Shown here: one piece after another, positions 20,821-43,812 of the stretch
Layout of the letters: the number at the start of each line of letters is the position of its first letter
Position numbering within the stretch: position 1 is the first letter of the stretch
Virus record (IMG/VR): IMGVR_UViG_3300037506_000184
Location: 1 to 64,000 of that record
From: a virus
Length of the DNA: 64,000 nt
Reading direction: 5' to 3' (one strand)
Translations under genes and position numbers: made by a program
The notes under the pieces: model-generated
Database searches by the model: none
The model's input: only the letters and a program-made list of their open reading frames with translations
Told to the model about the DNA's origin: nothing

Positions 20821-20987
20821 TCGACGCGGCCACCCATGCGGATTCGATGATCCGCGCCTCCGGTGTCGAGCTCGCGCTCTCGCTGGCCCGCCTCAACGTG
20901 CAGCTCCGGCCGCGCGAGCGCGCAGGGTTCTGGCGGGACGTGGCGGCGGAGATCGAGAAGCGGCGGGAGAAGGAGACGGCGTCATGA
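20817..20987 (+). CDS. Hypothetical 56-aa protein
   Basis: ATGA overlap with the upstream stop (MIDAATHADSMIRASGVELAL...). Confidence 0.4.
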   Translation: MIDAATHADSMIRASGVELALSLARLNVQLRPRERAGFWRDVAAEIEKRREKETAS

Positions 20988-21250
20988 GAATCGTCGATCC
21001 CCAGCGGGACGCATCGCTGCTCGCCTTCGCGAAACGCGCGCACGCGCACTTCGCGGAATGTCCCAATCACTACTCGTATACCGATCAGGTCGAACGGCCC
21101 GACGACGGGCTCGCCTATGCCGCCATCCGACCGGGCGAACTGCTCGCGCTCAGGTGGAACGAGGTTACCGTCCTCGTCCTTCGCGTGAGCGACGTCGACG
21201 AGGTGCTGCTCTACGACGAGAGCAGCCTACAGCCGAAGATGGGAGAGTAG
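20984..21250 (+). CDS. Hypothetical 88-aa protein
   Basis: ATGA overlap with the upstream stop (MRIVDPQRDASLLAFAKRAHAHF...). Confidence 0.45.
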   Translation: MRIVDPQRDASLLAFAKRAHAHFAECPNHYSYTDQVERPDDGLAYAAIRPGELLALRWNEVTVLVLRVSDVDEVLLYDESSLQPKMGE

Positions 21251-21252
21251 CC

Positions 21253-22182
21253 ATGTTGACCGCGGAAGAACGCGCCCAGCGACGTCCCTACCTCGGCTCC
21301 TCCGACGCTGCGGCTATCCTCGGGCTCAGCCCGTTTGCGACCGCGCGCGACGTCTGGTGGGACAAGTGCGGCCCCGAGATCCCCGACGACGAGCTGAAGG
21401 AGCAGCAGTTCGGGAGCCTGCTCGAGGATGCCGTCTGCGCGTACGCCTCGAAGCGCCTCGGCCTTCCGATCACGCGGAAGGTGTTCGTTGTCGCCGATCG
21501 CGGACCCGGCGCCGGTGTTCTCGCCGCGAGCCTCGACGCCGTCGTCGACGGTCGCCCGGAAGGGGTCGAGGCGAAGACGGCGGGTAGCTCCGCAGGTTGG
21601 GGCGACGAGGGAAGCGACGAGGTGCCCGAGCACGTGCTGATCCAGTGCCAGCACCAAGCGTACGTCGCGAACCTGGAGCGCGTCTGGGTGCCGGCGCTCG
21701 TCGTCGGCTACCGCGCAGAGTTCCGCCTCTACTGCGTCAACCGGCACGAGGGGCTCATCAACGCGATCGTCGACGCGGAGATGCGCTTCTACCGCGAGCA
21801 CATCGAGCCGCGGATCCCGCCCGACGGCTACACCGTACCGCCGATCGAGTACGTGAAGCATGCGCGTCGGACGGCGGCAAAGACGGTCGAGCTCGACGCC
21901 GACGCAATCGCCGCGTGGAACGGGCTCGAGGAAGCGAAGGCAGAGGCGAAGCGGATCGAGAACCTCTGCGACGATCGGAAGGCGGCGGTTCTGGCACTGC
22001 TCGGCGATGCCGAGGCCGGCAAGCTGCCCGACGGCCGCACGATCACCTACTTCGAGCAGAACAGCGCGCCGCGCTGCGACTACACGCGGCTCCGCGCGCT
22101 TCACCCGGGCGCGTATCTCGAGTGCGTCTCGCAGGGGACGCACCGCACGCTCCGAATTCAGAAAGCCAAAGGAGGAAAGTGA
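21253..22182 (+). CDS. YqaJ-like (lambda Exo-type, PD-(D/E)XK) recombination exonuclease
   Basis: RPYLGSSDAAAILGLSPFATARDVWWDK is the YqaJ hallmark. Later motifs ASLDAVV...GVEAKT and QCQHQAY are also present. Confidence 0.8.
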   Translation: MLTAEERAQRRPYLGSSDAAAILGLSPFATARDVWWDKCGPEIPDDELKEQQFGSLLEDAVCAYASKRLGLPITRKVFVVADRGPGAGVLAASLDAVVDGRPEGVEAKTAGSSAGWGDEGSDEVPEHVLIQCQHQAYVANLERVWVPALVVGYRAEFRLYCVNRHEGLINAIVDAEMRFYREHIEPRIPPDGYTVPPIEYVKHARRTAAKTVELDADAIAAWNGLEEAKAEAKRIENLCDDRKAAVLALLGDAEAGKLPDGRTITYFEQNSAPRCDYTRLRALHPGAYLECVSQGTHRTLRIQKAKGGK

Positions 22183-22185
22183 ATC

Positions 22186-23172
22186 ATGGCAGACTCTCTC
22201 GAGCAGATGGCGGGGGTTCCCGCCGTGGCAAGGCCGACCGGCCCGGCTTCGTCGTTCCTCGACCCGGCGAGCTTCGAGCTGATCCAGCGCGTGGCGGGCA
22301 TGTTCGCCAAGGCCGAGGTCGTTCCGCAGCGTTTCCGCGGCAAGGTCGGGGACTGCGTGATCGCGATCGACATGGCGAACCGGCTCGACGCCTCGATCCT
22401 GCAGGTCATGCAAGCGCTCTATTCCGTGCACGGCAATCCGAGCTGGTCGGCAAAGTTCTTGATCGCCTCGTTCAACCAGTGCGGGCGCTTCTCCTCGATT
22501 CACTACAGGTGGATCGGAGAGAGGGGCAAGGATACGTGGGGCTGCGTCGCCTGGGCGACCGAGAAAGCGACCGGCGAGACCATCGAGGGCCCGGAGATCA
22601 CGATCGCCCTCGCGAAGAGCGAGGGCTGGTACAACAAGAACGGCTCCAAGTGGCAGACGATTCCCCAGCTCATGCTGATGTACCGCGCCGCGGCGTGGCT
22701 CGTGAACACGCACGCGCCGGAGATCAGCATGGGACTCCGGACCGTGGAGGAGAACGAGGAGATCGAGCTCGAGCCCCGCGGTGACGGATCGTACGGGGCA
22801 CCGAACGGAAACGGCGAGGCGAAGAGCCGCTCGGACGCGCTGGCCAACCGCCTCGGCCTGAAGGACGCGGACAGCAACGGGAACAGCGACGGCGGCACGG
22901 TTGTCGTCGAGCAGGACCCCGCCCTCGTCGAGCGCTGCAACGACCTGATCCTTTCGATCAACAGCTTCCACGTCGACGAGCCCGACGCGGGCGTCGACGC
23001 CCTCGAGGCGGCCGAGAACCAGCGCGACCTCGCCGGCATGGACAACGAGCGTCTGGCCGGCGTCGAGAAGTACCTCCGCAATGTGCTCGCGCAGAAGGAG
23101 AAGCTGAGCGGCGCGAAGAAGCCCGCCGGCAAGAGCGAGCAGCTCGGCCTCGGTGGGAAGTCGGAGATCTGA
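22186..23172 (+). CDS. recT: RecT-family single-strand annealing protein
   Basis: RecT-like core present: IAIDMANRLDASILQVMQALYSVHGNPSWSAKFLIASFN...AKSEGWYNKNGSKWQTIPQLMLMYRAAAWL. It sits next to the YqaJ exonuclease. Confidence 0.85.
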   Translation: MADSLEQMAGVPAVARPTGPASSFLDPASFELIQRVAGMFAKAEVVPQRFRGKVGDCVIAIDMANRLDASILQVMQALYSVHGNPSWSAKFLIASFNQCGRFSSIHYRWIGERGKDTWGCVAWATEKATGETIEGPEITIALAKSEGWYNKNGSKWQTIPQLMLMYRAAAWLVNTHAPEISMGLRTVEENEEIELEPRGDGSYGAPNGNGEAKSRSDALANRLGLKDADSNGNSDGGTVVVEQDPALVERCNDLILSINSFHVDEPDAGVDALEAAENQRDLAGMDNERLAGVEKYLRNVLAQKEKLSGAKKPAGKSEQLGLGGKSEI

Positions 23173-23247
23173 ACACCACGAGCCGTTAGGCGGCAGCGGT
23201 GAGAGCGCGGGGTGCCGCCATACAATCCCGCGTTTCGGAGCACCCAC

Positions 23248-25575
23248 ATGACCATGCACATCCACACCACGGGCATGAAGGCCCGCGACCTTGACCTGGA
23301 TCTTCCGGGGCCGTGCGTCTTGCTCGTCGGCTGCACCGGCTCAGGCAAGAGCACGATCCTCGATGCAATCCGCATCGCCGCCCTTCGCCACGTCCCTGCC
23401 CTCGGAAAAACCGAGGCGGCAACGGCGCAGCTCATGTCGGGCCGCGAGCTCTCCGTGACGTTGGCGCTCCCCGGCAAGCGCGTGATCCGCCAGAAGCTCA
23501 CCAAGGGCGCGCGGGGCAATCTCTCATGGGCGACCGAGTGCTCCTGGCTCGGCCCCGAAGCGAAGGATACCGAGCATGCGGCCGAGGCGCTCCGCCTCTT
23601 CGGCGAGGACGCAACCGCCGTCGCCGAGTGTCTCGACCTCCGGTCTCTGCTCGCCCTCTCCGGCCCACAGCGCACGGCCCGGATCGAGCAGCTCATGGCC
23701 ACCGAGACCGACCCGGACGCCCAAGCGCTCAGGCTTGCCCGTTACGCCTTCCAGCGCCTGGCCGATGTCGACGACCAGCGCATGAAGGACGTCGCCGATC
23801 ACACCACACTCCGGCCGCTCATCAACGGTTGGGACAAGGACGGCGCCCACGCCGGCCAGTACGCGAGCCTCGCTGAGGTCTGGCCGATGGTGAAAGCGAA
23901 GCTCACGGCCGAAGGCGGGCTCACCAGCGCCGCGGCGTGGGTGAACGAGGAGAAGCGCGCCGGCGCATTGGACCTCGCGAAGAAGGAGCGGGCCCGCGAC
24001 GAGCTCGCCCTTCGGCTCCAGGAGATCGCCGATCCCGACGCCGACGAGATCGCCCGCCTCGAAGAGACGCGCGCAGCACTCGACCAGCACATCGGCGCCG
24101 CCGGCGAGCGGGCGTCGGAAGCGATGCGACGCCGAAACGAGATCGGCAAGGCCGATGCGGCGCTCAGCCGTGCCAAGGCGGAGGCCGCAACGGCGCTGAC
24201 CGCGCGCCAGCGCTACGAGCAGGACGCCGCGGCCGCCGGCGATTGGAAGGCACGGCTCGAGGAGATCGAGGCCGAGCTCGAGGCCATCGTCACCGGCGCC
24301 ACGCCGGACCCGGGCGCTTCGGTCGAAGCCGAGCGGCGCGCTCAGATCGAGGAGCGGCTCTCTGCTCTCGCGGAGGAGATCGCCACGGCCGAGGGTGCCA
24401 TCCCGGCCGAGCCGATCAGCACGGACGCCCTGGCCGCCGAGATCGCCTCCCTGATGCGCCAGCTCCAGGCCGCGCGCGCGAACCCGTGGGCGGAGGTGCG
24501 GATGCTCGCCGCCGATATCCGGGAGCAGGCGAGCCGCATCCCGAAGGCCAAGGAGATCAGCAAGAAGGCCGATCGCCTCGTCGAGATCGCCGGCGCCAAC
24601 GTTGACGATCCCGCGGCGCTCACGGCCGCGATCGAGGCGAAGGAGGCCGAGAAGGCGCGCGCCGAGAAGGAAGCGAGCGGCATCCGCGAGAAGCGACGCT
24701 ACGCGCAGGAGGCCCTCGCCAAGCTCCTCGGCGAACGCGACGAGCTACGGCTGGAAGCGCACCAGGTGAAAGAGCAGATCGACGCCGCGAAGCGACAGGC
24801 CGACTCCGCCACCTTCGACCGCCGAACGAAGCTCACGGTCGAGCGCACCGACCTCCGCCACAAGCTGGAGATGCTCTCCAGGCGCGACCGCGAGACGGAG
24901 AAGGCCGCCGTCACCACCGGCGAAGCCCTACGCTCCGCTGAGGCTCTCAGGCTTCAGCTCGGCGACGCACCCGAAGACGTTGCAGGCGTCGATGAAGCGT
25001 TGACCGCCGAGCGCGACGAGGTGGCCGGTCGGCTTTCGCGAATGCTGGATGCCCGTGCGCAGCACCGGCAGCTCGCCGACGTCATCGCCGAGATCAACCG
25101 CCTCGGTGCGCGGCATGCCGTGCTGCTCGCGATCGAGGATGCGTGCAAGCGGCTCCGCGCCGATGAGGTGGCCGCGCAGGGCGGCCCGCTCCTGGAGATC
25201 CTGACGACGTACCTTCGCGCGGCGGGACGCACCGAGACGCCGTACATCGTGGCCAACCGGACGAGCTGCGACTTCGGATGGGTGCGCGGCGACAAGCAGG
25301 TATCGATCGCCGCGATGTCGGGAGGTGAGTGGGGACTCTTCGCGGCTGGTCTCACGGCGGCGCTCCTCATTCTCAGGGCCGCGCCCGTGCGGATTTTGCT
25401 CGTCGAGAGCGCCGAGCTCGACACGCCCACACTGCAGCAGATGCTCCGCGGCATCGCGGCGCTGAAGAGCGAGCTGACCGCGTGTCTCGCCGCTGCATGG
25501 CACGGCGAGAGCGTGAAGGTTGACGGTTGGACGGTGCTGCGGGCGAGCGGCGAGCGTATCGCTGAGGCCGCATGA
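23248..25575 (+). CDS. SMC/Rad50/SbcC-like coiled-coil ATPase
   Basis: Walker A is VGCTGSGKST. About 500 aa of coiled coil follow. The ABC signature MSGGEWGL and a degenerate Walker B RILLVESAELD lie near the C-terminus. Confidence 0.7.
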   Translation: MTMHIHTTGMKARDLDLDLPGPCVLLVGCTGSGKSTILDAIRIAALRHVPALGKTEAATAQLMSGRELSVTLALPGKRVIRQKLTKGARGNLSWATECSWLGPEAKDTEHAAEALRLFGEDATAVAECLDLRSLLALSGPQRTARIEQLMATETDPDAQALRLARYAFQRLADVDDQRMKDVADHTTLRPLINGWDKDGAHAGQYASLAEVWPMVKAKLTAEGGLTSAAAWVNEEKRAGALDLAKKERARDELALRLQEIADPDADEIARLEETRAALDQHIGAAGERASEAMRRRNEIGKADAALSRAKAEAATALTARQRYEQDAAAAGDWKARLEEIEAELEAIVTGATPDPGASVEAERRAQIEERLSALAEEIATAEGAIPAEPISTDALAAEIASLMRQLQAARANPWAEVRMLAADIREQASRIPKAKEISKKADRLVEIAGANVDDPAALTAAIEAKEAEKARAEKEASGIREKRRYAQEALAKLLGERDELRLEAHQVKEQIDAAKRQADSATFDRRTKLTVERTDLRHKLEMLSRRDRETEKAAVTTGEALRSAEALRLQLGDAPEDVAGVDEALTAERDEVAGRLSRMLDARAQHRQLADVIAEINRLGARHAVLLAIEDACKRLRADEVAAQGGPLLEILTTYLRAAGRTETPYIVANRTSCDFGWVRGDKQVSIAAMSGGEWGLFAAGLTAALLILRAAPVRILLVESAELDTPTLQQMLRGIAALKSELTACLAAAWHGESVKVDGWTVLRASGERIAEAA

Positions 25576-25952
25576 AGCTCACCGACCTCCGTCCCTGCGA
25601 CGCGTGCAACGGCCCGCTGCAAGGTAAGCCGGGCGGTGTCCGCTCGGCGACGTGGTACGTGGTCCGCGTCACGCAGGCGATGCTGAACCCGAAGGCCGCC
25701 GGCCGGACCCTCGGGCTGGCACAGTTCTTCGGCCAGGGCTCCATCAGCCCGGCCGCACTCAACCTCGCCGAGGTCATGGGCGACTGCGGTGATGACGCGG
25801 TGATGATCCTCGGCGACAAAGAACCGGCGCTCACGACCGAGCTGTTCATCTGCTTCGACTGCTACTGCGGCCCGCTCGATCTAGCGTCCGTCGTCGAGCG
25901 GCGTGCCCGGGCGACCGAAGAAGCGGGGGACGGACGGCGGGAAGCGGAATGA
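25572..25952 (+). CDS. Hypothetical Cys-containing 126-aa protein
   Basis: ATGA overlap with the upstream stop. CDAC near the N-terminus and CFDCYC later suggest a zinc site. Confidence 0.45.
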   Translation: MKLTDLRPCDACNGPLQGKPGGVRSATWYVVRVTQAMLNPKAAGRTLGLAQFFGQGSISPAALNLAEVMGDCGDDAVMILGDKEPALTTELFICFDCYCGPLDLASVVERRARATEEAGDGRREAE

Positions 25953-26042
25953 TCCCGATGCCCGAGCTGCCCGACGATACCGACTTCGCCGTCGGCATCG
26001 GGTGGGCGGACGGAATCGGAAGCTGGTCAACGATTTGGAGGG

Positions 26043-26552
26043 ATGGGGATGGGAACGACCTACAGCGAATCGCCACACATTCACGGCCTCGCGATGGACG
26101 TGATGAAGCAGTACCACGGCAAGCTGCTCGAAGCCGGGGTGACGGTCGGCGTCCTGCTGGCAAGTGACGAGGATGAAGACGGCTTCAATCAACCGGCGCT
26201 GAAACGCAGCGGCTATCCTGCCGCCGCCAAGGTGCAAATCGCCAGTCTGGCGGATCGTGCCCGCGGCATCGCCGACGTGAAGCTCGTCGTCGACGAGTAC
26301 GCCTGGGAGCAGTTGCCCGAAGCGTCGCGCCTCGCGCTGCTCGATCACGAGCTGGAGCACGTCGTTCTCGTCTTCGACAACAAGACCGGCGAGCTGAAAC
26401 GCGACGACCTCGGGCGGCCGAAGCTCAAGATCCAGCCGCACGACTTCGAAGTCGGCGTGTTCATCTCGGTCGCCGAGCGGCATCGAGAAGCGGCGGTCGA
26501 AGTGCGGGAGCTGAAGCGGTTTCGCAGCGAGCAGATGGATCTGTTCGGCTGA
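26043..26552 (+). CDS. Putative phage metallopeptidase-like protein
   Basis: LALLDHELEHVVLVFD is an HExxH-type motif. The true start is uncertain because 25949-26042 is covered by a different frame. Confidence 0.5.
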   Translation: MGMGTTYSESPHIHGLAMDVMKQYHGKLLEAGVTVGVLLASDEDEDGFNQPALKRSGYPAAAKVQIASLADRARGIADVKLVVDEYAWEQLPEASRLALLDHELEHVVLVFDNKTGELKRDDLGRPKLKIQPHDFEVGVFISVAERHREAAVEVRELKRFRSEQMDLFG

Positions 26553-26812
26553 TGCTCGACCCCGACGCCACCTACATCGTCTGCATCCCCGCATCCTGGC
26601 GCGCATCACCCGTGCCGGGAGCGGAGACCCGCGAGTGCAGCGAATGCGCGGACGATGTGTGGCTCGCACCGTCTGGGCAGGCGATCGTCGACCGAGAGAA
26701 GGCGGCGATCGTCTGCATCGTGTGCGCGGCGACGGCGAAGGGCGAGCATTCGGTGATCGGGCCGAACCCGGAGCAGGTCAGGGAGATTCTCGCGGCGCTG
26801 ATGGCGTCGTGA
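26552..26812 (+). CDS. Hypothetical zinc-ribbon-like 86-aa protein
   Basis: The start overlaps the upstream stop. Contains CSEC and CIVC pairs. Confidence 0.45.
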   Translation: MLDPDATYIVCIPASWRASPVPGAETRECSECADDVWLAPSGQAIVDREKAAIVCIVCAATAKGEHSVIGPNPEQVREILAALMAS

Positions 26813-26831
26813 GGGGACGGAGGAGGCGGCG

Positions 26832-28748
26832 GTGGACGGACCGAAGGCACTTCACTTGTTCTCTGGCGTGGGCGGCGCGGCACTCGGTTTTCAACGCGCC
26901 GGCTTTCGTAGTGTTGGCGCTTTCGATTCAGACGCGTTGGCCTGCAAGGCGTTCGAGTATCTGACCGGCGATACACCAACGCGCGCCGACCTCTCGACGA
27001 TGAGTCCGGAGGAAATGCGGCAGGCCTGCCTCGATCGCCCTGACGTCGTGTTTCTGAGTCCACCGTGTAAGGGCCATTCGGGCTGTCTGCCGCAGGCGAT
27101 GGCGGACAGCGAGCGCTACCAGGAAATGAACGCGCTTTCGCTCCGCGGCATCTTCCTCGCCGTCGAGGCCTGGAAGACACCACCGCCGCTGATCGTCATG
27201 GAGAACGTACCGCGCATCACGTCGCGCGGGCGTCATTGGCTCGACCAGGTGAAGGGTCTGCTCGAGGGCTACGACTACGCCACGCGAGAGACGGTGCACG
27301 ACGCGGGCGAGCTCGGCGGCCTCGGACAGCGACGCAAGCGCTTCCTCCTCGTCGCACGCCACACGAAGCAGGTGCCGGCCTTCATGCGCGTCCCGCCGAA
27401 GAAGCCGCTCCGCGGCGTGGGTGAGATCCTCGGCCTGCTGCCGGTGCCGGTACCCGGTTCGACAGACGGCGGGCCCATGCACAAGCTGCCGCGGCTCTCG
27501 CCGAAGAACTGGGTGCGGCTCGCGCTCATCCCTGCCGGCGGCGACTGGCGCGATCTGCCGTCCTCGGTGGCGATCGTCGCAGGACCACACCGGCACTACG
27601 GCGGCCTCGGCGTGAACGCTTGGGACGATCCGAGCAAGACTGTCGTCGGCGCCGCCGATCCGAAGAACAAGCCGGTGAGCGTACAGGATCCGCGCCTCGG
27701 TCCGCGCGCTGCGCGACAGAATGGAGGCTTCGGGGTCAACGAGTGGAAGGACCCGAGCCATGCCGTGATCGCGGAGGGCAGCGTTCGCAACACGTGGTCC
27801 TCGGTTTCCGATCCGCGCATCGAAGGCTCGCCGCATCGCCACAACGGCAAGTACGGCGTCGAGAGCTGGGACGATCCGGCGCATGCGGTGATCGGGCAGG
27901 CGCGCACCGGTAAGGGCTGGGCTGGGGTGTCCGATCCGCGGGTGAATACTGCGGGGCCATCGGCCCACAACGGCCGCTTGGGCGTCGAGGATTGGGACGC
28001 GCCTTCGCATACGATCACGGGCCGCCTCGACGCGCGCACCCGCTGGGGATCGGTCAACGACCCTCGCCTCATGTGCTCGCCGCGCGCCGGCGTCTACGGC
28101 GTCGGCGACTGGAGCGAACCGGCCGGCGCAGTGATCGGCTCTGCGAGCCACGACAACGGCCGGCACAGTGTCGCCGACCCGCGGGTCACCTGCGAGCGCC
28201 GCGAGGGCTCGCTCGGTGTCACGGGCTGGGACGAGCCGAGCACCTCGGTGATCGCGAACGGGCGCATCCACAACGGCCCGTGGCAGGTTGCCGACCCGCG
28301 CCTCGACCACGAACCGCGCCGTGGCAGCTACGGTGTTACGGGCTGGGCTGAAGCGACGCACTGCGTCCGTGGCGTGCAGAAGATCCAGAACGGTGAGGCG
28401 AGCGTCGCGGACCCGCGCGTTCCCGAGATCGTCGGCCCCTACTTCGACATCGAGGACAACCGACCGCGCTACCTCGTGATCGTTGCCGCCGACGGTACCT
28501 GGCACCGGCCGATGACGACGCTGGAGCTCGCCGCGCTGCAGAACTTCCCGGTGCAGCATCGCGGCGGCTGGCTGCTACTTCCCGGCAACGATGCCGAGCG
28601 CCGTGAGCTGATCGGAAACGCCGTGCCTCCCGCGGCTGCGGAAGCGATCGCGCTTGCCTGTCTCGAGGTCCTCGCCGGCGCCGGCACGTTCAGGCTCTCG
28701 TCGGAGCCGATCTGGGTCGGGCCGGGAGAGAGGCTGATCGAGGCATGA
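26832..28748 (+). CDS. DNA (cytosine-5) methyltransferase with seven tandem ~40-aa repeats in the variable region
   Basis: C5 motifs in canonical order: LFSGVGG (I), SPPCKGHS (IV), ENVPR (VI), QRRKRFLLV (VIII), TTLELAALQNFP (IX), GNAVPP (X). Seven GxxGVxxWxxPSxxVxx...DPR units occupy residues ~256-531. Confidence 0.85.
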   Translation: MDGPKALHLFSGVGGAALGFQRAGFRSVGAFDSDALACKAFEYLTGDTPTRADLSTMSPEEMRQACLDRPDVVFLSPPCKGHSGCLPQAMADSERYQEMNALSLRGIFLAVEAWKTPPPLIVMENVPRITSRGRHWLDQVKGLLEGYDYATRETVHDAGELGGLGQRRKRFLLVARHTKQVPAFMRVPPKKPLRGVGEILGLLPVPVPGSTDGGPMHKLPRLSPKNWVRLALIPAGGDWRDLPSSVAIVAGPHRHYGGLGVNAWDDPSKTVVGAADPKNKPVSVQDPRLGPRAARQNGGFGVNEWKDPSHAVIAEGSVRNTWSSVSDPRIEGSPHRHNGKYGVESWDDPAHAVIGQARTGKGWAGVSDPRVNTAGPSAHNGRLGVEDWDAPSHTITGRLDARTRWGSVNDPRLMCSPRAGVYGVGDWSEPAGAVIGSASHDNGRHSVADPRVTCERREGSLGVTGWDEPSTSVIANGRIHNGPWQVADPRLDHEPRRGSYGVTGWAEATHCVRGVQKIQNGEASVADPRVPEIVGPYFDIEDNRPRYLVIVAADGTWHRPMTTLELAALQNFPVQHRGGWLLLPGNDAERRELIGNAVPPAAAEAIALACLEVLAGAGTFRLSSEPIWVGPGERLIEA

Positions 28749-29422
28749 TCCCTCGCCTGCAAATACTGGACGCCGCTGGCCTCGCCCACGCCCAAGCCGT
28801 CGTCGCGCGCCATCACTATCTCCGAAAGCCGGTCGACGTCCGCTGCATGCCCGAGGCGTACGCCATCCGCCTCGATTCCGTTCCGGGCCCGGTCGGCTTC
28901 TTCATCCTCGGGCGCCCGCAGGCCACGAAGTGTTTCCCTTGGTACGGATCGCTCGAGGAGACCGCGCGCGGCCGGGCCGAGGTGACCCGGTGGCAGGTTC
29001 TGAATCTCGCCCGGGTGTACTTCGACCCGCGCGTCCAGCCGGGCGGCGAGCGCTTCGGGGCCGGTTATCTGCCGGGCTTCGTCGACCGTCGGCACGCCTT
29101 CCGCTCGACGCTCGGCTCGGCGGCGATCACCGAACTCGCCCACCAGGTCGTGCGCGATTACCTGATCCGGCGGCCGCCCTGCTTTCTGGAGGAGCCGTAC
29201 GAGCTCCGCTGGCTGCTGTCCTATTGCGACACGCGGCTGCATCGCGGGACCCTCTATCGCGCCGCAGGCTTCGAGCTCTGGCGCACGAACGCGGCGGGCA
29301 TCCAAACGTGGCGCCGGCCACTACGGGCGCTGACGCCGGCGGAGGACGCGGAGGTGCGGGCGGCGGCGGAGAGTCACCCGCGATCGATTCGGTTTCGGGA
29401 GCAGCGGCGGAGGGCCGCCTGA
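28745..29422 (+). CDS. GNAT-fold-like HHYL-motif protein (Mom / XF1762 / DUF4338-like pattern); candidate DNA base-modifying enzyme
   Basis: ARHHYLRKP, GFFILGRPQA, VLNLARVYF and LLSYCDTRLHRGTLYRAAGFE match the pattern I associate with Mom-like and DruA-like acyltransferase-fold domains. This is recognition by pattern only. Confidence 0.4.
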   Translation: MIPRLQILDAAGLAHAQAVVARHHYLRKPVDVRCMPEAYAIRLDSVPGPVGFFILGRPQATKCFPWYGSLEETARGRAEVTRWQVLNLARVYFDPRVQPGGERFGAGYLPGFVDRRHAFRSTLGSAAITELAHQVVRDYLIRRPPCFLEEPYELRWLLSYCDTRLHRGTLYRAAGFELWRTNAAGIQTWRRPLRALTPAEDAEVRAAAESHPRSIRFREQRRRAA

Positions 29423-29760
29423 TGCGCTGCATCTCCTTCGCCGCCACGACTCCCCAGATCCGCGCCCGCACCAAGACCGTCACGCGCCGGATCGGCTGGT
29501 GGGATCTGAAGCCAGGAGATCGCCTGCTCGCCGTCGAGAAGTACCGTGGCGTGCGGCGAGAGAATCGCGTCGAGCTCGGCGTGATCGAGGTCGTGTCGGT
29601 GCGGAAGGAACGCCTGGACGCGATCACGCAAGAGGACGTCGAGCGCGAGGGCTTTCTCGGGATGTCGCCGGCCGAATTCGTCGAGTTCTTCTGTCGGCTG
29701 AATCGTTGCCGTTCGGACGCGAGGCCGAACCGGATCGAGTTTCGGTACGTGGAGGAGTGA
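29422..29760 (+). CDS. ASCH (PUA-like) domain protein
   Basis: TGATG overlap with the upstream stop. Motifs: MRCISFAATTPQIRARTKTVTRRIGW...LKPGDRLLAVEK. Confidence 0.6.
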   Translation: MRCISFAATTPQIRARTKTVTRRIGWWDLKPGDRLLAVEKYRGVRRENRVELGVIEVVSVRKERLDAITQEDVEREGFLGMSPAEFVEFFCRLNRCRSDARPNRIEFRYVEE

Positions 29761-30060
29761 ATGAGCCATCGAGACAACTGCCCTGACCGCTACACCGCAC
29801 GCCGCGAAGGCGAGCGCGCCTTCGACTACGGCCGCGGGATCTACAGCAACCCCTACGACGGCGGCTGCGACGAAGCCTCCGAGGAGTGGCGCCGCGGCTA
29901 CCGTGAAGCCGAGGACCGGCGGGGGGAAGAGGAAGCGGCCGAACGCACGGCAGAGCGTCGGCACCAGGAGTACCTCGACGAGCAGCGCTACCTCGAAGAG
30001 CGGTTCTACGCCGAGCAGTGTCCGGAGCAGCCGATGCCGGAAGAGGAGCCGCAAAAATGA
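29761..30060 (+). CDS. Hypothetical acidic 99-aa protein
   Basis: The ORF abuts the previous stop. No motif recognised. Confidence 0.4.
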   Translation: MSHRDNCPDRYTARREGERAFDYGRGIYSNPYDGGCDEASEEWRRGYREAEDRRGEEEAAERTAERRHQEYLDEQRYLEERFYAEQCPEQPMPEEEPQK

Positions 30061-40644: not shown

Positions 40645-41580
40645 ATGCGTCTTGCGCTGATAAAACAAACTCTTGAGACAGCCTCGCCTCGACTAGTTGC
40701 CCACAAAGTACAGAGTTCCGCCGGAATGACCCGCATCTCCGGCGTGCAAGGCGCCATGCGCGCTGTTCGTGAAATTCAGCGAACCGGTGTGTTGCGTAAC
40801 GAGGTAGGGGGCGTTCTTGAAATACGCGCAGTGGCAGAGGCGGTGCAGCAAGATATCTCAGTGGAGAACGAGCTTGCGAACTCCTTCTCGCGAGCCCTTG
40901 GGACGTTGAAGGATCGAGCCGAATGTCTTGTCGCCGCCCTTCAGGACATCGCCCTACGGGAGGAACCCGAGAGCCTAATCGTACGCATACCAGATGAACT
41001 CGACATCAAGGACCTGGTGTCGCTGTTGCAGAAGATTGGTCTCGCCCTCGAGCAGTCACTTATCGGGTACACCGACGCCCAACTAAAAATCGGTCACTTC
41101 GACTACGGTTCAAATTGGATCGAGTTTTCCCTTCGTTCCTTGACTGCGATTACGATCATGAGCCGTCTCATTCTGCTAGTTGAGCAGGGAGACATTGCGG
41201 TCACGAAAGCCATGGCCCGACGGGTTCAGTTGCAGGAGTTGACTCAGGAAGCTCGCCTGGAGAAGGAGGTGGCTGAGCAACTCCTGGGGACATTTGACCG
41301 AAAGATACGGGACGAGCAGGAAGCCGCACTCTGTGAAATAGCCAATTTGGCCGGTGTTCCCGCCGAGCAACAACCCGACTACATCGTCAAGCTAAAACTC
41401 ACGATGAATGTACTCTCAGAATTGAAGCAGAAGGGTGTCGAACTTCATCCCTCACTGACGGCACCGACAGAGATAGTCGACGTCTTTTCATCGATTCGCG
41501 AGCTCATCCAGGAAGTCGCGCAGCTTCCAGGGACTGCAAGGCTGACCGACGGCCGCCAAGGGTCGGGAGAGGCCGATTGA
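40645..41580 (+). CDS. Orphan 311-aa all-helical protein in a low-GC patch
   Basis: The long ORF has good coding composition. By eye, many of its 60-nt lines are about 45-55% GC, clearly below the flanks. No motif recognised. Confidence 0.55.
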   Translation: MRLALIKQTLETASPRLVAHKVQSSAGMTRISGVQGAMRAVREIQRTGVLRNEVGGVLEIRAVAEAVQQDISVENELANSFSRALGTLKDRAECLVAALQDIALREEPESLIVRIPDELDIKDLVSLLQKIGLALEQSLIGYTDAQLKIGHFDYGSNWIEFSLRSLTAITIMSRLILLVEQGDIAVTKAMARRVQLQELTQEARLEKEVAEQLLGTFDRKIRDEQEAALCEIANLAGVPAEQQPDYIVKLKLTMNVLSELKQKGVELHPSLTAPTEIVDVFSSIRELIQEVAQLPGTARLTDGRQGSGEAD

Positions 41581-41592
41581 CGGCTAAGGAGA

Positions 41593-42387
41593 CTACGTCA
41601 CCACCCTCGCGCGCCTCAGTGTCTGATCCGTGAATAGCCGCCCAGCGTTGACGGTCCCGCCGGCCAGGACTCCCGCCGGCAGCGCGATCCGCTTCAGCGT
41701 TCCGCCGTTGACCGTGAACTGACCGGCGCCGAGCGTCGCGACAACTCCGTCGACGTCGACCCCATACGGGCCGTCGCACTTGAGAACGATGCCGCCGCCG
41801 GCGCCGTGCCCCGCATTGACGTCGCCCTCGGGCGCGCCGTGCGCGAGGATGATGCCCGACGACGGCACGAAGATCCGCGCGGCGGAGAAGAGCCGGATGA
41901 GACCGCCGCCGTCGCCTCCTGACGCACCGTCGGCCACGGTCGAGCCGCCGCCGCCTGATCCCTTCACACCGCTGTCGTCTGTCGTTGCGTCGCCCTGCCC
42001 TGCGGTCGCCAGATAGCCTCCGTCCTGCCCGGCCGCGCCGCCGAAGGGGCCCTCGCCGGCAACCTGCGCGACGCCGCCGCGATAGCCGACGCCGGAGGAG
42101 AGCAGCGCGCCGCCGATCTCGACGTCCTGGGCGTGGAGCTCGAGCGCGCCGAAGGTTGAGCCGTCGTAGTCGAGCACGGTCACGGTGACATCGGCGACGA
42201 TCTCGAATCGGCCGACGTTCAGATGAACGCCGGCGACGATCAAATCCTCGGCGATGATCCAGTCGGCGCCGCCGTGGTTCCCGCCGCCGGTCGGCGTCCA
42301 GGAGATCGCCTCGACGGGAACGGGCGGGGTCGTTTCGCCGTAGCGGTGGCCGGTGCCGTAGCGCGCGCCTGTGCCGTACTTGGCCAT
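41593..42387 (-). CDS. Glycine-rich beta-helix-like protein (tail-fibre-tip-like)
   Basis: GGGGSTVADGASGGDGGGLIRLF and GHGAGGGIVLKC segments resemble the Gly-rich C-terminus of the 561-aa fibre-like protein at 56758-58443. Confidence 0.55.
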   Translation of the reverse strand: MAKYGTGARYGTGHRYGETTPPVPVEAISWTPTGGGNHGGADWIIAEDLIVAGVHLNVGRFEIVADVTVTVLDYDGSTFGALELHAQDVEIGGALLSSGVGYRGGVAQVAGEGPFGGAAGQDGGYLATAGQGDATTDDSGVKGSGGGGSTVADGASGGDGGGLIRLFSAARIFVPSSGIILAHGAPEGDVNAGHGAGGGIVLKCDGPYGVDVDGVVATLGAGQFTVNGGTLKRIALPAGVLAGGTVNAGRLFTDQTLRRARVVT

Positions 42388-42390
42388 CCC

Positions 42391-42579
42391 CTACCGCACG
42401 TCGTATCCGGTCAGCCAGCCAGCCGCTGCGCCGATCACCAGAACCGCCGCGGCGCGCCACGGATGGCGTAACAGGGAGGCCAACAGACAGGCAGACCACC
42501 AGCGGCAGTCGAACGGGCGGGGCGGTCCCCCATCCAGTTGGAAGATCAGTCTCTTCATCGACTGGTACTGCTCAGCCAC
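42391..42579 (-). CDS. Small membrane protein, 62 aa
   Basis: ORF with two hydrophobic segments. Weak support. Confidence 0.35.
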   Translation of the reverse strand: MAEQYQSMKRLIFQLDGGPPRPFDCRWWSACLLASLLRHPWRAAAVLVIGAAAGWLTGYDVR

Positions 42580-42781
42580 GGCCGTGCTCCCGCATGCGTG
42601 CCAGTAGCTTCTCCACCTCGGCGCCGGAGTCCACCGGGGCGGGTCGGGGGCGGTGAATCATGACGATCTTCCCGTCCAGCGCAACGCGATCTGCCTCCCC
42701 GTTGCAGTCGCATCCCTCGGTGAACACCTCGCAGTCCTGCGGCATCTTCGCGAGCGCCTCGATCAGCTCTGAGACTTTCAT
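42572..42781 (-). CDS. Hypothetical 69-aa protein
   Basis: The start overlaps the upstream stop (MKVSELIEALAKMPQDCEVFTEGCDCNGE...). Confidence 0.45.
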   Translation of the reverse strand: MKVSELIEALAKMPQDCEVFTEGCDCNGEADRVALDGKIVMIHRPRPAPVDSGAEVEKLLARMREHGRG

Positions 42782-43812
42782 CCCCGCGACCGTTTCCAGG
42801 CCACAAACTCATCCCATTCCGCCTCGCCCACCAGCATCCCCTCGATCGCCTCGACGTTGCGCGCGTCGCCCTCGATGAACTCCAGCTCCGGGCCGTTCTT
42901 CTCGGCGTTCACGCGGACCGGCTCCGCGACCTTCTCGATGCGGAGGACGGTCCTCAATCCGCCATCCTCGTTGATGTGATTTCGCAGCACGAAGCCGCGC
43001 AGCTTCGGGATGCGTTCGCCGTTCAACTCGATAAATGCAGGGGTTCGCTCGGCGCCGAGGCGGATGCGGACGCGGGAGGGTTCGGTCAGGCGGTGCGTCT
43101 TGCCGATTGCCGCAACTTCGTCCTTGACGATCTGCGCGGCGCGCTCCCGGAGCCGGTCGCCGTAGCGCTCCATGACCTTGCCCAGGAATCCGGTCATGGG
43201 ACTCGCGGGCATACGCACGTCGACCGTGACGCCCTGGTCGGCGCCCGGGCGCGCTGAGTCGATCATTGGGGCGACCGACCCCGCACGCTTCGCTATGACA
43301 TGATCCTCGATCTCGCTAAAAGTTGGGAATGCCGGCGGCAACCCGAACACTCCGGCGTTGTCGAACTTGCGACGGCACCTGTTTGCATCCTCGTTGGCGG
43401 TCGTCACCTGCTCCCGCAGCGATCTGATGCGCGGGTCGGCGTTCTCGCGGCAGAGCAGAAGATGCGTTACGTGGTACTCGGTCATCTCCTTCGCTGGCTG
43501 TCCGGCGGAGAAAATGAACTTCGCGATCGAGAGGCATGGTGCAAACCCGAGAATTGATTCGCGCCATTCCGCACCCCCGCCCAACTTCAGCTCGGCGGCG
43601 TACACGACCGCCCCAGTCTCCCCGGCCGCGATCGGTACCGGGTAGGACTTCACCAGCGTGGCAAAGCCGATAGGCTGCGTATTCTGGTTTCCGGCAAGCA
43701 AAATCGGGACGATTTCACCGTGCGGGATTTTGACCAGCGTGGGATCGACCGCTAGCCCGTTGCGATCCGGCTTCCCATCGAGGATCTCGACCAGAACATC
43801 CTTGATCAACAT
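42778..43812 (-). CDS. Hypothetical 344-aa protein
   Basis: Long ORF with good composition, divergent from terL. No motif recognised. Confidence 0.5.
   Translation of the reverse strand: MLIKDVLVEILDGKPDRNGLAVDPTLVKIPHGEIVPILLAGNQNTQPIGFATLVKSYPVPIAAGETGAVVYAAELKLGGGAEWRESILGFAPCLSIAKFIFSAGQPAKEMTEYHVTHLLLCRENADPRIRSLREQVTTANEDANRCRRKFDNAGVFGLPPAFPTFSEIEDHVIAKRAGSVAPMIDSARPGADQGVTVDVRMPASPMTGFLGKVMERYGDRLRERAAQIVKDEVAAIGKTHRLTEPSRVRIRLGAERTPAFIELNGERIPKLRGFVLRNHINEDGGLRTVLRIEKVAEPVRVNAEKNGPELEFIEGDARNVEAIEGMLVGEAEWDEFVAWKRSRG

Follow-up and report, generated by a model that had tools for sequence, protein, structure and literature searches.

Here we analyzed a C5 DNA methyltransferase gene in a 64,000-nt stretch of viral DNA (IMG/VR record IMGVR_UViG_3300037506_000184; the whole stretch is hereafter called the window), whose product carries seven tandem copies of a 33-residue unit between methyltransferase motifs VIII and IX. 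The window has a G+C content of about 66%. The open reading frame of the methylase starts with GTG, with a Shine-Dalgarno-like stretch, GGAGGAGG, just 5' of it. In the encoded protein, the N-terminal 182 residues matched PF00145 with 83.1 bits (cutoff 22), and motifs I, IV, VI, VIII, IX and X were all found in canonical order, namely motif I FSGVGG at residues 10-15, motif IV PPCKG at 77-81 including Cys79, motif VI ENV at 124-126, motif VIII QRRKR at 166-170, motif IX TTLELAALQNFP at 562-573 and motif X GNAVPP at 595-600. The dcm superfamily model TIGR00675 scored 63.7 bits, under its cutoff of 100.65, as the model is broken up by the array. Among solved structures, DNMT1/MET1, HaeIII and HhaI are closest in sequence, and DNMT1, HaeIII and HhaI match residues 3-186. 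The gene is an intact C5 methyltransferase, and its parts are as follows, with model confidence given as the predicted local distance difference test (pLDDT) of AlphaFold, identities as those of the best-matching unit in a homologue (P numbers), and the small domain denoted as the target-recognition domain (TRD).

26832-28748, + strand: complete C5 DNA methyltransferase gene, 638 residues plus stop (open reading frame list, PF00145, fold matches)
26832-27386, + strand: catalytic lobe, motifs I-VIII (motif positions, pLDDT above 90, sequence matches)
27387-27596, + strand: N-terminal, constant stretch of the small (TRD) domain, with NWVRLALIPAGGDWRDLP at residues 226-243 (near-invariance in the family, pLDDT 66-93)
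27600-27698, + strand: core of unit 1, type J, GGLGVNAWDDPSKTVVGAADPKNKPVSVQDPRL (best match 82%, in P0010)
27723-27821, + strand: core of unit 2, type B, which is usually first in the family, GGFGVNEWKDPSHAVIAEGSVRNTWSSVSDPRI
27846-27944, + strand: core of unit 3, type E, GKYGVESWDDPAHAVIGQARTGKGWAGVSDPRV (best match 88%, in P0002)
27972-28070, + strand: core of unit 4, type H, GRLGVEDWDAPSHTITGRLDARTRWGSVNDPRL
28089-28187, + strand: core of unit 5, type C, with an 'HDNG' loop, GVYGVGDWSEPAGAVIGSASHDNGRHSVADPRV (64% identical to the last unit of orf41 of Pseudomonas phage phiCTX)
28206-28304, + strand: core of unit 6, type A, the commonest type, GSLGVTGWDEPSTSVIANGRIHNGPWQVADPRL
28323-28421, + strand: core of unit 7, type G, a terminal type, GSYGVTGWAEATHCVRGVQKIQNGEASVADPRV
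28422-28514, + strand: constant connector, PEIVGPYFDIEDNRPRYLVIVAADGTWHRPM, with the family signature DGTWHRP (D554, W557, H558, R559 and P560 invariant; pLDDT 63-80)
28515-28631, + strand: motif IX TTLELAALQNFP through motif X GNAVPP (motif positions, sequence alignment)

The seven units occupy residues 257-530, flanked by motif VIII, which ends at residue 170, and motif IX, which begins at residue 562. Their 'GVxxW' elements start at residues 260, 301, 342, 384, 423, 462 and 501, and their 'DPR' elements lie at residues 286, 327, 368, 410, 449, 488 and 527, giving DPR periods of 41, 41, 42, 39, 39 and 39 residues. Every unit has a 33-residue core, running from the G to one residue past DPR, without a single indel among the seven, and the cores are separated by linkers of 8, 8, 9, 6, 6 and 6 residues. 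The G, GV, W, V and DPR positions are invariant in all seven, and identity to unit 1 is 33-51% for units 2-7. When the seven were built into a profile, each scored 50-68 bits against it, and no Pfam model covers the repeat region. At the DNA level, the units share 57-68% nucleotide identity, their longest common exact word is 12 nt, and Tandem Repeats Finder reported no repeat, indicating that the repeats are ancient at the nucleotide level.

These results bear out much of what an initial annotation, made from the sequence alone, had claimed for this locus. It had called the gene a C5 methyltransferase, which agrees with the PF00145 match, the complete set of motifs and the fold matches; it had placed seven tandem units with a GVxxW-to-DPR consensus between motifs VIII and IX, and we found them there with periods of 39-42 residues; it had put the array at 27597-28424, and the cores span 27600-28421. 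Its view that the units are diverged rather than recent duplicates is supported by the nucleotide identities and by the negative result of Tandem Repeats Finder. It had further stated that the corresponding element occurs once in ordinary Dcm-type enzymes, immediately before the TRD. The element does occur once per ordinary enzyme, but it lies inside the TRD, at the C-terminal end of that domain just before motif IX.

Relation of the unit to the TL motif and its predicted structure

C5 methyltransferases carry a TL motif with the consensus (YFW)X(RK)X5P(STCA)PT(ILV)(TASV)X5-16H(PFYWL), which lies 10-50 residues ahead of motif IX; residues in and around it make critical contacts with DNA, and it served Trautner for marking off the TRDs of multispecific enzymes (PMC2413257). 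The unit, [YLF]-G-V-x2-W-x2-P-S-x-T-V-...-D-P, has exactly the spacing of this motif. When the pattern was relaxed at the same spacing to admit V in place of R/K, D in place of H and any residue at the second P, it matched the methylase seven times, against 0.0025 matches expected in the shuffled protein. A monospecific enzyme printed in PMC11954522 has one TL-type element, 'YGRMEWDKPSPTIT..GHPEQDR' / 'VYGRMEWDKPSPTITTQCFGFGNGRFGHPEQDR', directly before motif IX, and the unit profile matches that single element.

In HhaI and HaeIII, the TL dipeptide is flanked by Loop 1, which reads the target's 5' part, and Loop 2, which reads the 3' part (PMC2790894). In mouse DNMT1, the CpG is read by TRD loops I (1501-1516) and II (1530-1537), and W1512 together with K1537 fills the cavity left by base flipping (PMC6316889). 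The constant regions on both sides of the array of the window methylase also align with DNMT1: the segment of residues 186-255, 5' of the array, aligns with the DNMT1 TRD start 'SxLxxxRxxxIP..PGSDWRDLP', and the HRP of the connector aligns with DNMT1 'HRV', just ahead of motif IX. When a unit is set against what we take to be the DNMT1 sequence, which fits the published W1512-K1537 spacing, the G-x-Y-G...W-D...V-x-[DH]-P framework of the unit presumably lines up, and loop II would presumably fall on the variable stretch of the unit between 'TV[IV]G' and 'VADPR'. Judged from the motif spacing, the profile match and these alignments, the unit is probably the conserved TL-motif core of the TRD itself, so that the thing amplified would be the reading head, and in each unit the two reading loops appear to have their counterparts on either side of a TL dipeptide.

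AlphaFold modelled the catalytic core of the methylase with pLDDT above 90 and the constant parts with high confidence when run with a 79-sequence alignment, while most of residues 249-534 received pLDDT 30-45. Unit 5 (type C, residues 420-450) was the only unit modelled with moderate confidence (pLDDT about 66-69), as two short strands. Because register noise from variable unit numbers was suspected in this alignment, a second run was performed on the four-unit homologue P0021 (unit order BCAD) with an alignment of 52 four-unit proteins. Here, unit 1 was modelled with pLDDT 57-76 as three short strands, and units 2-4 received pLDDT 30-35. Foldseek matched the model of the window methylase to MET1, DNMT1, HhaI and HaeIII at E values of about 1e-11, and the values to these four structures ranged from 1e-11 to 1e-16 over the two models. 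The P0021 model superposed on whole HhaI/HaeIII with a target-normalised template modelling (TM) score of 0.73-0.76, compared with about 0.5 for the seven-unit model, suggesting that the constant scaffold and one unit may together make a complete small domain. TRD loops can be disordered until DNA is bound, as in DNMT3A (PMC6316889).

Homologues, unit types and phage setting

At E < 1e-5, 5192 proteins were obtained in a first search for homologues, and many of them are ordinary C5 methylases matched via the core. The repeats are carried by all of the top 120 of these homologues (44-63% identity), the closest of which, P0002, is 63% identical to the window methylase. A search of 1.84 billion representative proteins with a seven-unit profile found 497 clusters at E <= 0.001, 345 of them at E <= 1e-10. 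In IMG/VR, at least 581 loci with family-specific peptides were confirmed by tblastn, and the 78 loci that were analyzed have 5-8 units each. Unit number in the family ranges from 2 to 12, with 12 in P0130 and 11 each in P0121 and P0125; the seven units of the window methylase lie in the upper-middle of this range and are not an outlier. A scan of genome contigs with a single protein query matched one locus, in an Armatimonadia metagenome-assembled genome.

Members were also found in cultured phages, at about 37-41% identity to the window methylase. The methylase encoded by orf41 of Pseudomonas phage phiCTX has five DPR-terminated units by eye and four by the unit profile, gp34 of Sinorhizobium phage PBC5 has eight, and the enzyme of Marinobacter phage PS3 has four; further members occur in Pseudomonas phages H66, LKA5 and Dobby and in an Achromobacter phage. 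The phiCTX gene (NC_003278.1, 31617-33395) encodes a complete C5 methyltransferase, yet its RefSeq label is 'hypothetical protein'. Searches of the literature by accession, phage name and 'multispecific' keywords found no characterization of phiCTX orf41, PBC5 gp34 or the PS3 methylase, and no description of the phiCTX-type family or its repeats was found in the literature searchable without most subscription journals and REBASE. Two homologues combine the units with other domains: P0010 (896 residues), whose units begin at residue 641, is fused to PF14528, a LAGLIDADG/intein-type domain, and P0066 (699 residues) has PF02086, an N6-adenine methylase domain, after three units.

The units themselves were compared in a set of 552, drawn from 123 proteins, in which conservation reaches at least 60% in eleven framework columns (G, GV, W, P, V and VADPR). 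For 99.5% of the units the best match lies in a different protein, and the mean best match is 79% identity in other proteins versus 47% within the same protein. Each unit of the window methylase likewise has a best match of 71-88% in another protein and of about 50% within its own, in agreement with the earlier suggestion that the diverged units are maintained. Clustering at 50% identity gave 51 unit types. Outside the framework, column identity is 44-58% among units of one type and 21.5% across types; for the same pairs of proteins, identity of the catalytic cores is about 63%.

The order of the types varies widely, with 93 architectures among the 123 proteins, and follows a loose grammar in which B, or J then B, comes first, C-A stands in the middle and D, F, G or I is last; the window methylase reads J-B-E-H-C-A-G. 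Even protein pairs with cores at least 80% identical (n = 97) have the same architecture in only 22 cases and the same unit number in 45. P0039 and P0071, with cores 98% identical, read BHAF and BAF; P0047 and P0045 (94%) read BEAI and BMAe; P0003 and P0006 (93%) read JBECAI and JBCAE. Duplication of a type within a protein was observed 11 times, against 65 expected (minimum 51 in 2000 shuffles). These data indicate that units are gained, lost and swapped like cassettes, which is not the behaviour of the blades or turns of a structural repeat. We regard this turnover as the discriminating result, because any old repeat protein would show paralogous positions. Turnover together with rare duplication is what would be expected of exchangeable recognition modules, because a second copy of the same specificity would be useless.

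Two structural candidates for the array were considered and set aside. In many linkers of the family a conserved Cys or His stands three residues past DPR (a Cys for 185 of the 552 units, a His for 70), as in 'DPRVTCERREG'; linkers of the window methylase lie, for example, at 28071-28088 and 28188-28205. A Zn site formed by these residues was dropped, as the ligand set is inconsistent across the window methylase's own units. A seven-bladed propeller, whose repeats of about 40 residues would carry W and D, was rejected since copy number varies and no such fold was predicted. More generally, a closed or solenoid repeat fails on two grounds: most units have pLDDT below 50 in both predictions, and copy number runs from 2 to 12 and differs between near-identical cores.

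The methylase lies in a phage early or recombination module, with the following genes around it and a large terminase further along the window.

20863-22182, + strand: RecE-like exonuclease
22186-23172, + strand: RecT
23212-25575, + strand: SbcC/AAA_23-like ATPase, 787 residues, with a long coiled-coil-like Ala/Glu-rich middle
26043-26552: phage metallopeptidase
28745-29422, + strand: weakly Mom-like gene (phrog_1384, E 3.3e-7; PF25680, 21.4 bits against a cutoff of 27.1)
29410-29760, + strand: borderline ASCH gene (21.1 bits against a cutoff of 21.2), not established
29761-30060, + strand: borderline ribosome modulation factor RMF gene (23.6 bits against 27.9), not established

The ATG of the Mom-like gene overlaps the stop codon of the methylase (ATGA), so that translation of the two genes may be coupled, and from its family match the Mom-like gene may provide a second DNA-modification function. 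Among the genes adjoining the methylase no match to a nuclease family was seen, and several of these neighbours match no family at all. Gene order upstream of the methylase on the P0002 contig resembles that of the window; it consists of a YqaJ exonuclease, an unannotated 419-residue gene and an AAA_23 ATPase. For another homologue, the surrounding region is prophage-like and has an integrase, and homologues are set among phage replication modules.

Candidate mechanism and its alternatives

We propose, with a probability of roughly 0.55, that the protein is an orphan, multispecific anti-restriction C5 methylase of a phage, in which each unit would have a separate short motif and the units would dock alternately. 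One catalytic core and one constant small-domain scaffold would be common to seven alternative miniature heads. Each head would be one 33-residue TL-motif unit with the fixed framework G-x-[YLF]-G-V-x-x-W-x-x-P-S-x-T-V ... V-A-D-P-R, and the type-specific residues on both sides of T-V would occupy the base-contacting loop positions of HhaI, HaeIII and DNMT1. Heads would dock singly into one TRD slot beside Cys79, undocked heads would loop out on flexible Pro/Gly/Arg-rich linkers, and each head would direct methylation of its own short motif. With many motifs marked, phage DNA would be shielded from many host restriction systems, and gain, loss and exchange of cassettes would retune the set of protected motifs. 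Speaking for this proposal are the intact enzyme, the likeness of the unit to the TL motif, the type-specific conservation outside the framework, the cassette-like turnover, the copy number of 2-12, the single unit modelled in each of two proteins, the phage setting in which no nuclease partner was seen, and two precedents: the tandem TRDs of Bacillus phage enzymes, and a second phage lineage with tandem TL-type elements, whose Paracoccus relatives are reported to protect partially against 16 restriction enzymes.

A number of observations weigh against one specificity per unit. No published specificity for any member of the family was found in the literature. The strict TL motif has no match in the methylase: the unit has Val in place of Arg/Lys, a variable residue in place of the second Pro and Asp in place of His, and the Arg/Lys position, Val in the units, has been linked to the reading of the 5' base (PMC2413257). 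A profile of 49 diverse units found no match among all PDB sequences at E <= 10, and the unit profile matched neither methylase of Bacillus phage phi3T. The preferred positions of some types within the array would also fit structural roles. The evidence from AlphaFold is indirect, the modelled units having pLDDT 57-76, and the low confidence elsewhere could reflect a failure of modelling. Phage 5-methylcytosine (m5C) methylases of about 700 residues, for example that of Rhizobium phage RR1-A, are stated to be homologues of two Paracoccus aminophilus prophage enzymes and of Aeromonas phiARM81 enzymes with relaxed specificity (PMC5537653). The Paracoccus enzymes conferred partial protection against 16 restriction enzymes, including cutters of AGCT, GGCC, CCWGG, CCGG, GCGC and ACGT, and none against 12 others, which the authors read as relaxed rather than discrete specificities (PMC3925955). 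BLASTP of the window methylase against the RR1-A enzyme gave E = 0.006 and 23% identity in the C-terminal part only, and the link of RR1-A to the assayed Paracoccus proteins (e.g., JCM7686_0772) is those authors' statement.

The main rival, which we consider possible though distinctly less probable, is accordingly a relaxed or high-avidity methylase, in which the array as a whole makes recognition looser or broader (any C in a 2-bp context, for example) or holds the enzyme on the DNA for processive methylation, and the units have no separable motifs. It would fit with the description of the only assayed enzymes of comparable design as relaxed, with a unit framework that lacks the canonical TL Arg/Lys and with an array that AlphaFold shows as mostly unstructured. 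Interchangeable avidity elements, however, would not be expected to keep type-specific loop residues across proteins with only about 63% core identity, nor to repeat a type almost never within a protein (11 observed against 65 expected), and the fact that near-identical cores have swapped units suggests that selection acts on the identity of the units as well as on their number. Somewhat less probable again is that activity is confined to one unit or a few, the rest being pseudo-TRDs (silent or reserve cassettes) or spacers. Inactive 'pseudo-domains' have been reported in Bacillus phage enzymes, AlphaFold models a single unit with moderate confidence, and types B and A and the terminal types occur almost throughout the family, with the presence of others varying. 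Silent units, on the other hand, would be expected to decay, whereas all seven units of the window methylase keep the full invariant framework without indels and each has a counterpart 71-88% identical elsewhere.

The regular period, short linkers and variable copy number would also suit a composite reader, in which the units lie side by side on the DNA like zinc fingers or transcription activator-like effector (TALE) repeats and jointly specify one long or bipartite site. We think this improbable, as the unit is homologous to an element at the flipped cytosine beside the active site rather than to a reader lying far from it, a phage methylase would gain nothing obvious from a long rare site, and no extended fold was predicted. 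At the far end stands the idea that the array is a non-functional disordered linker or a low-complexity expansion. The initial annotation had named a disordered linker without conservation in homologues as the outcome that would overturn its claim, and only the first half of this was found: pLDDT is below 50 over most of residues 249-534, but conservation among homologues is strong. Columns are invariant across the 552 units, phages of Pseudomonas, Marinobacter and Sinorhizobium have conserved unit types in common, and 497 clusters among 1.84 billion proteins match the unit profile, so that this explanation is effectively refuted by conservation.

Returning to heads with separate motifs, a bolder version, which we put forward tentatively and at somewhat below even odds, is that the family forms a natural combinatorial library of minimal 33-residue heads, each sufficient on the shared scaffold for its own motif and shuffled, up to 12 per enzyme, into near-universal shields. 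If so, no methyltransferase would be known to have modular DNA-specificity cassettes that are smaller or more regular, and some 50 unit types on an invariant framework could lead to a recognition code of C5 methylases and to designer multi-site methylases. If each head does have its own motif, this would explain how one gene evades many restriction systems; the methylomes of lysogens and metagenomes could then hold many m5C motifs from a single gene, complicating the matching of motifs to methylases. In that case, the fixed framework with its variable loops (552 units, about 51 types) would also be an unusually clean data set for the code relating TRD to target and for methylase engineering. 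The family makes prediction of C5-methylase specificity from TRD sequence more tractable.

Comparison with known methylases

Monospecific Dcm/DNMT1-like enzymes, such as the M_MAGs_10 CATCGATG methylase, DNMT1, M.HaeIII and M.HhaI, have the same catalytic fold and motif order as the window methylase. They share with it the TRD start 'IP..G.DWRDLP' and the TL element just before motif IX, but have one such element where the window methylase has seven. The likeness to Type I HsdS is a functional analogy only: recognition modules are exchanged as cassettes between close scaffolds, as in the present family, whereas HsdS is an unrelated protein and its two TRDs jointly read one bipartite site.

Closer in design are the enzymes of the RR1-A type. 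In the RR1-A methylase (41579-43672) we found nine tandem '[ED]P..T[IV]T' elements spaced 32-42 residues apart, in phiARM81ld (25673-27337, minus strand) about five, and in the 120 RR1-A relatives listed 5-11 each by pattern count. Like the window methylase, these are large C5 methylases of phages or prophages, encoded in replication modules and carrying tandem TL-type elements. No sequence relationship to the window methylase was detected beyond generic C5 motifs; they differ in motif IV, which is SPDCKHFS, and in their units, which have neither GVxxW nor VADPR. RR1-A was absent from the tblastn matches of both the window methylase and PBC5 gp34, the Paracoccus aminophilus enzymes were not among the 120 RR1-A relatives listed, and no mention of the tandem elements of RR1-A-type enzymes was found in the accessible literature. 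Judging by these patterns, tandem TL arrays seem to have arisen in at least three lineages of phage methylases, and where relatives of such lineages were assayed, many sites were affected.

The initial annotation did not recognize the repeat architecture among known multispecific phage methylases. Its principle is that of the Bacillus phage enzymes with their tandem TRDs, and it is not isolated, since the same family is present, unremarked, in phages phiCTX, PBC5, H66, LKA5, Dobby and PS3. Bacillus phages array multiple TRDs in one polypeptide and are thereby protected from many restriction systems (PMC12707154), and these TRDs lie in tandem (PMC8936443). Like the window methylase, the Bacillus enzymes M.SPRI, M.phi3TI, M.rho11sI and M.H2I, and M.(phi)BssHII, have one core with tandem TRDs between motifs VIII and IX; they are phage-borne orphans, and each of their TRDs is delimited by its own TL motif. 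The two TRDs of the phi3T enzyme, 'RVYSPEGLSPTLTTMGGGHREPKI' and 'RRFKENGEPAFTVNTIDRHGVAI', share their general layout with the units described here, and tblastn aligns only the N-terminal 173 residues of the window methylase (2-174) with it, at 31.6% identity. In the Bacillus enzymes, the TRDs number about 2-5 and show hardly any similarity to one another, whereas the array of the window methylase is strictly periodic, with 33-residue cores, linkers of 6-9 residues, an invariant G/GV/W/VADPR framework and seven units, or up to 12 in the family. The hosts differ as well, being Gram-negative, high-GC bacteria in the present family.

The concept of tandem TRDs is therefore not new; what is notable is the scale, the modularity and the clean framework. 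To our knowledge, the multispecific methylases known until now were confined to a small number of Bacillus phage enzymes, each with few TRDs. Our data suggest that tandem TRDs are a widespread design among phages of Gram-negative bacteria, where the phiCTX member has stood in a published genome for decades as a 'hypothetical protein', and the family extends the design to 7-12 heads on a strictly periodic framework. Compared with the SPR and phi3T enzymes, the window methylase belongs to a separate lineage that probably follows the same principle with an array that is more regular and much longer.

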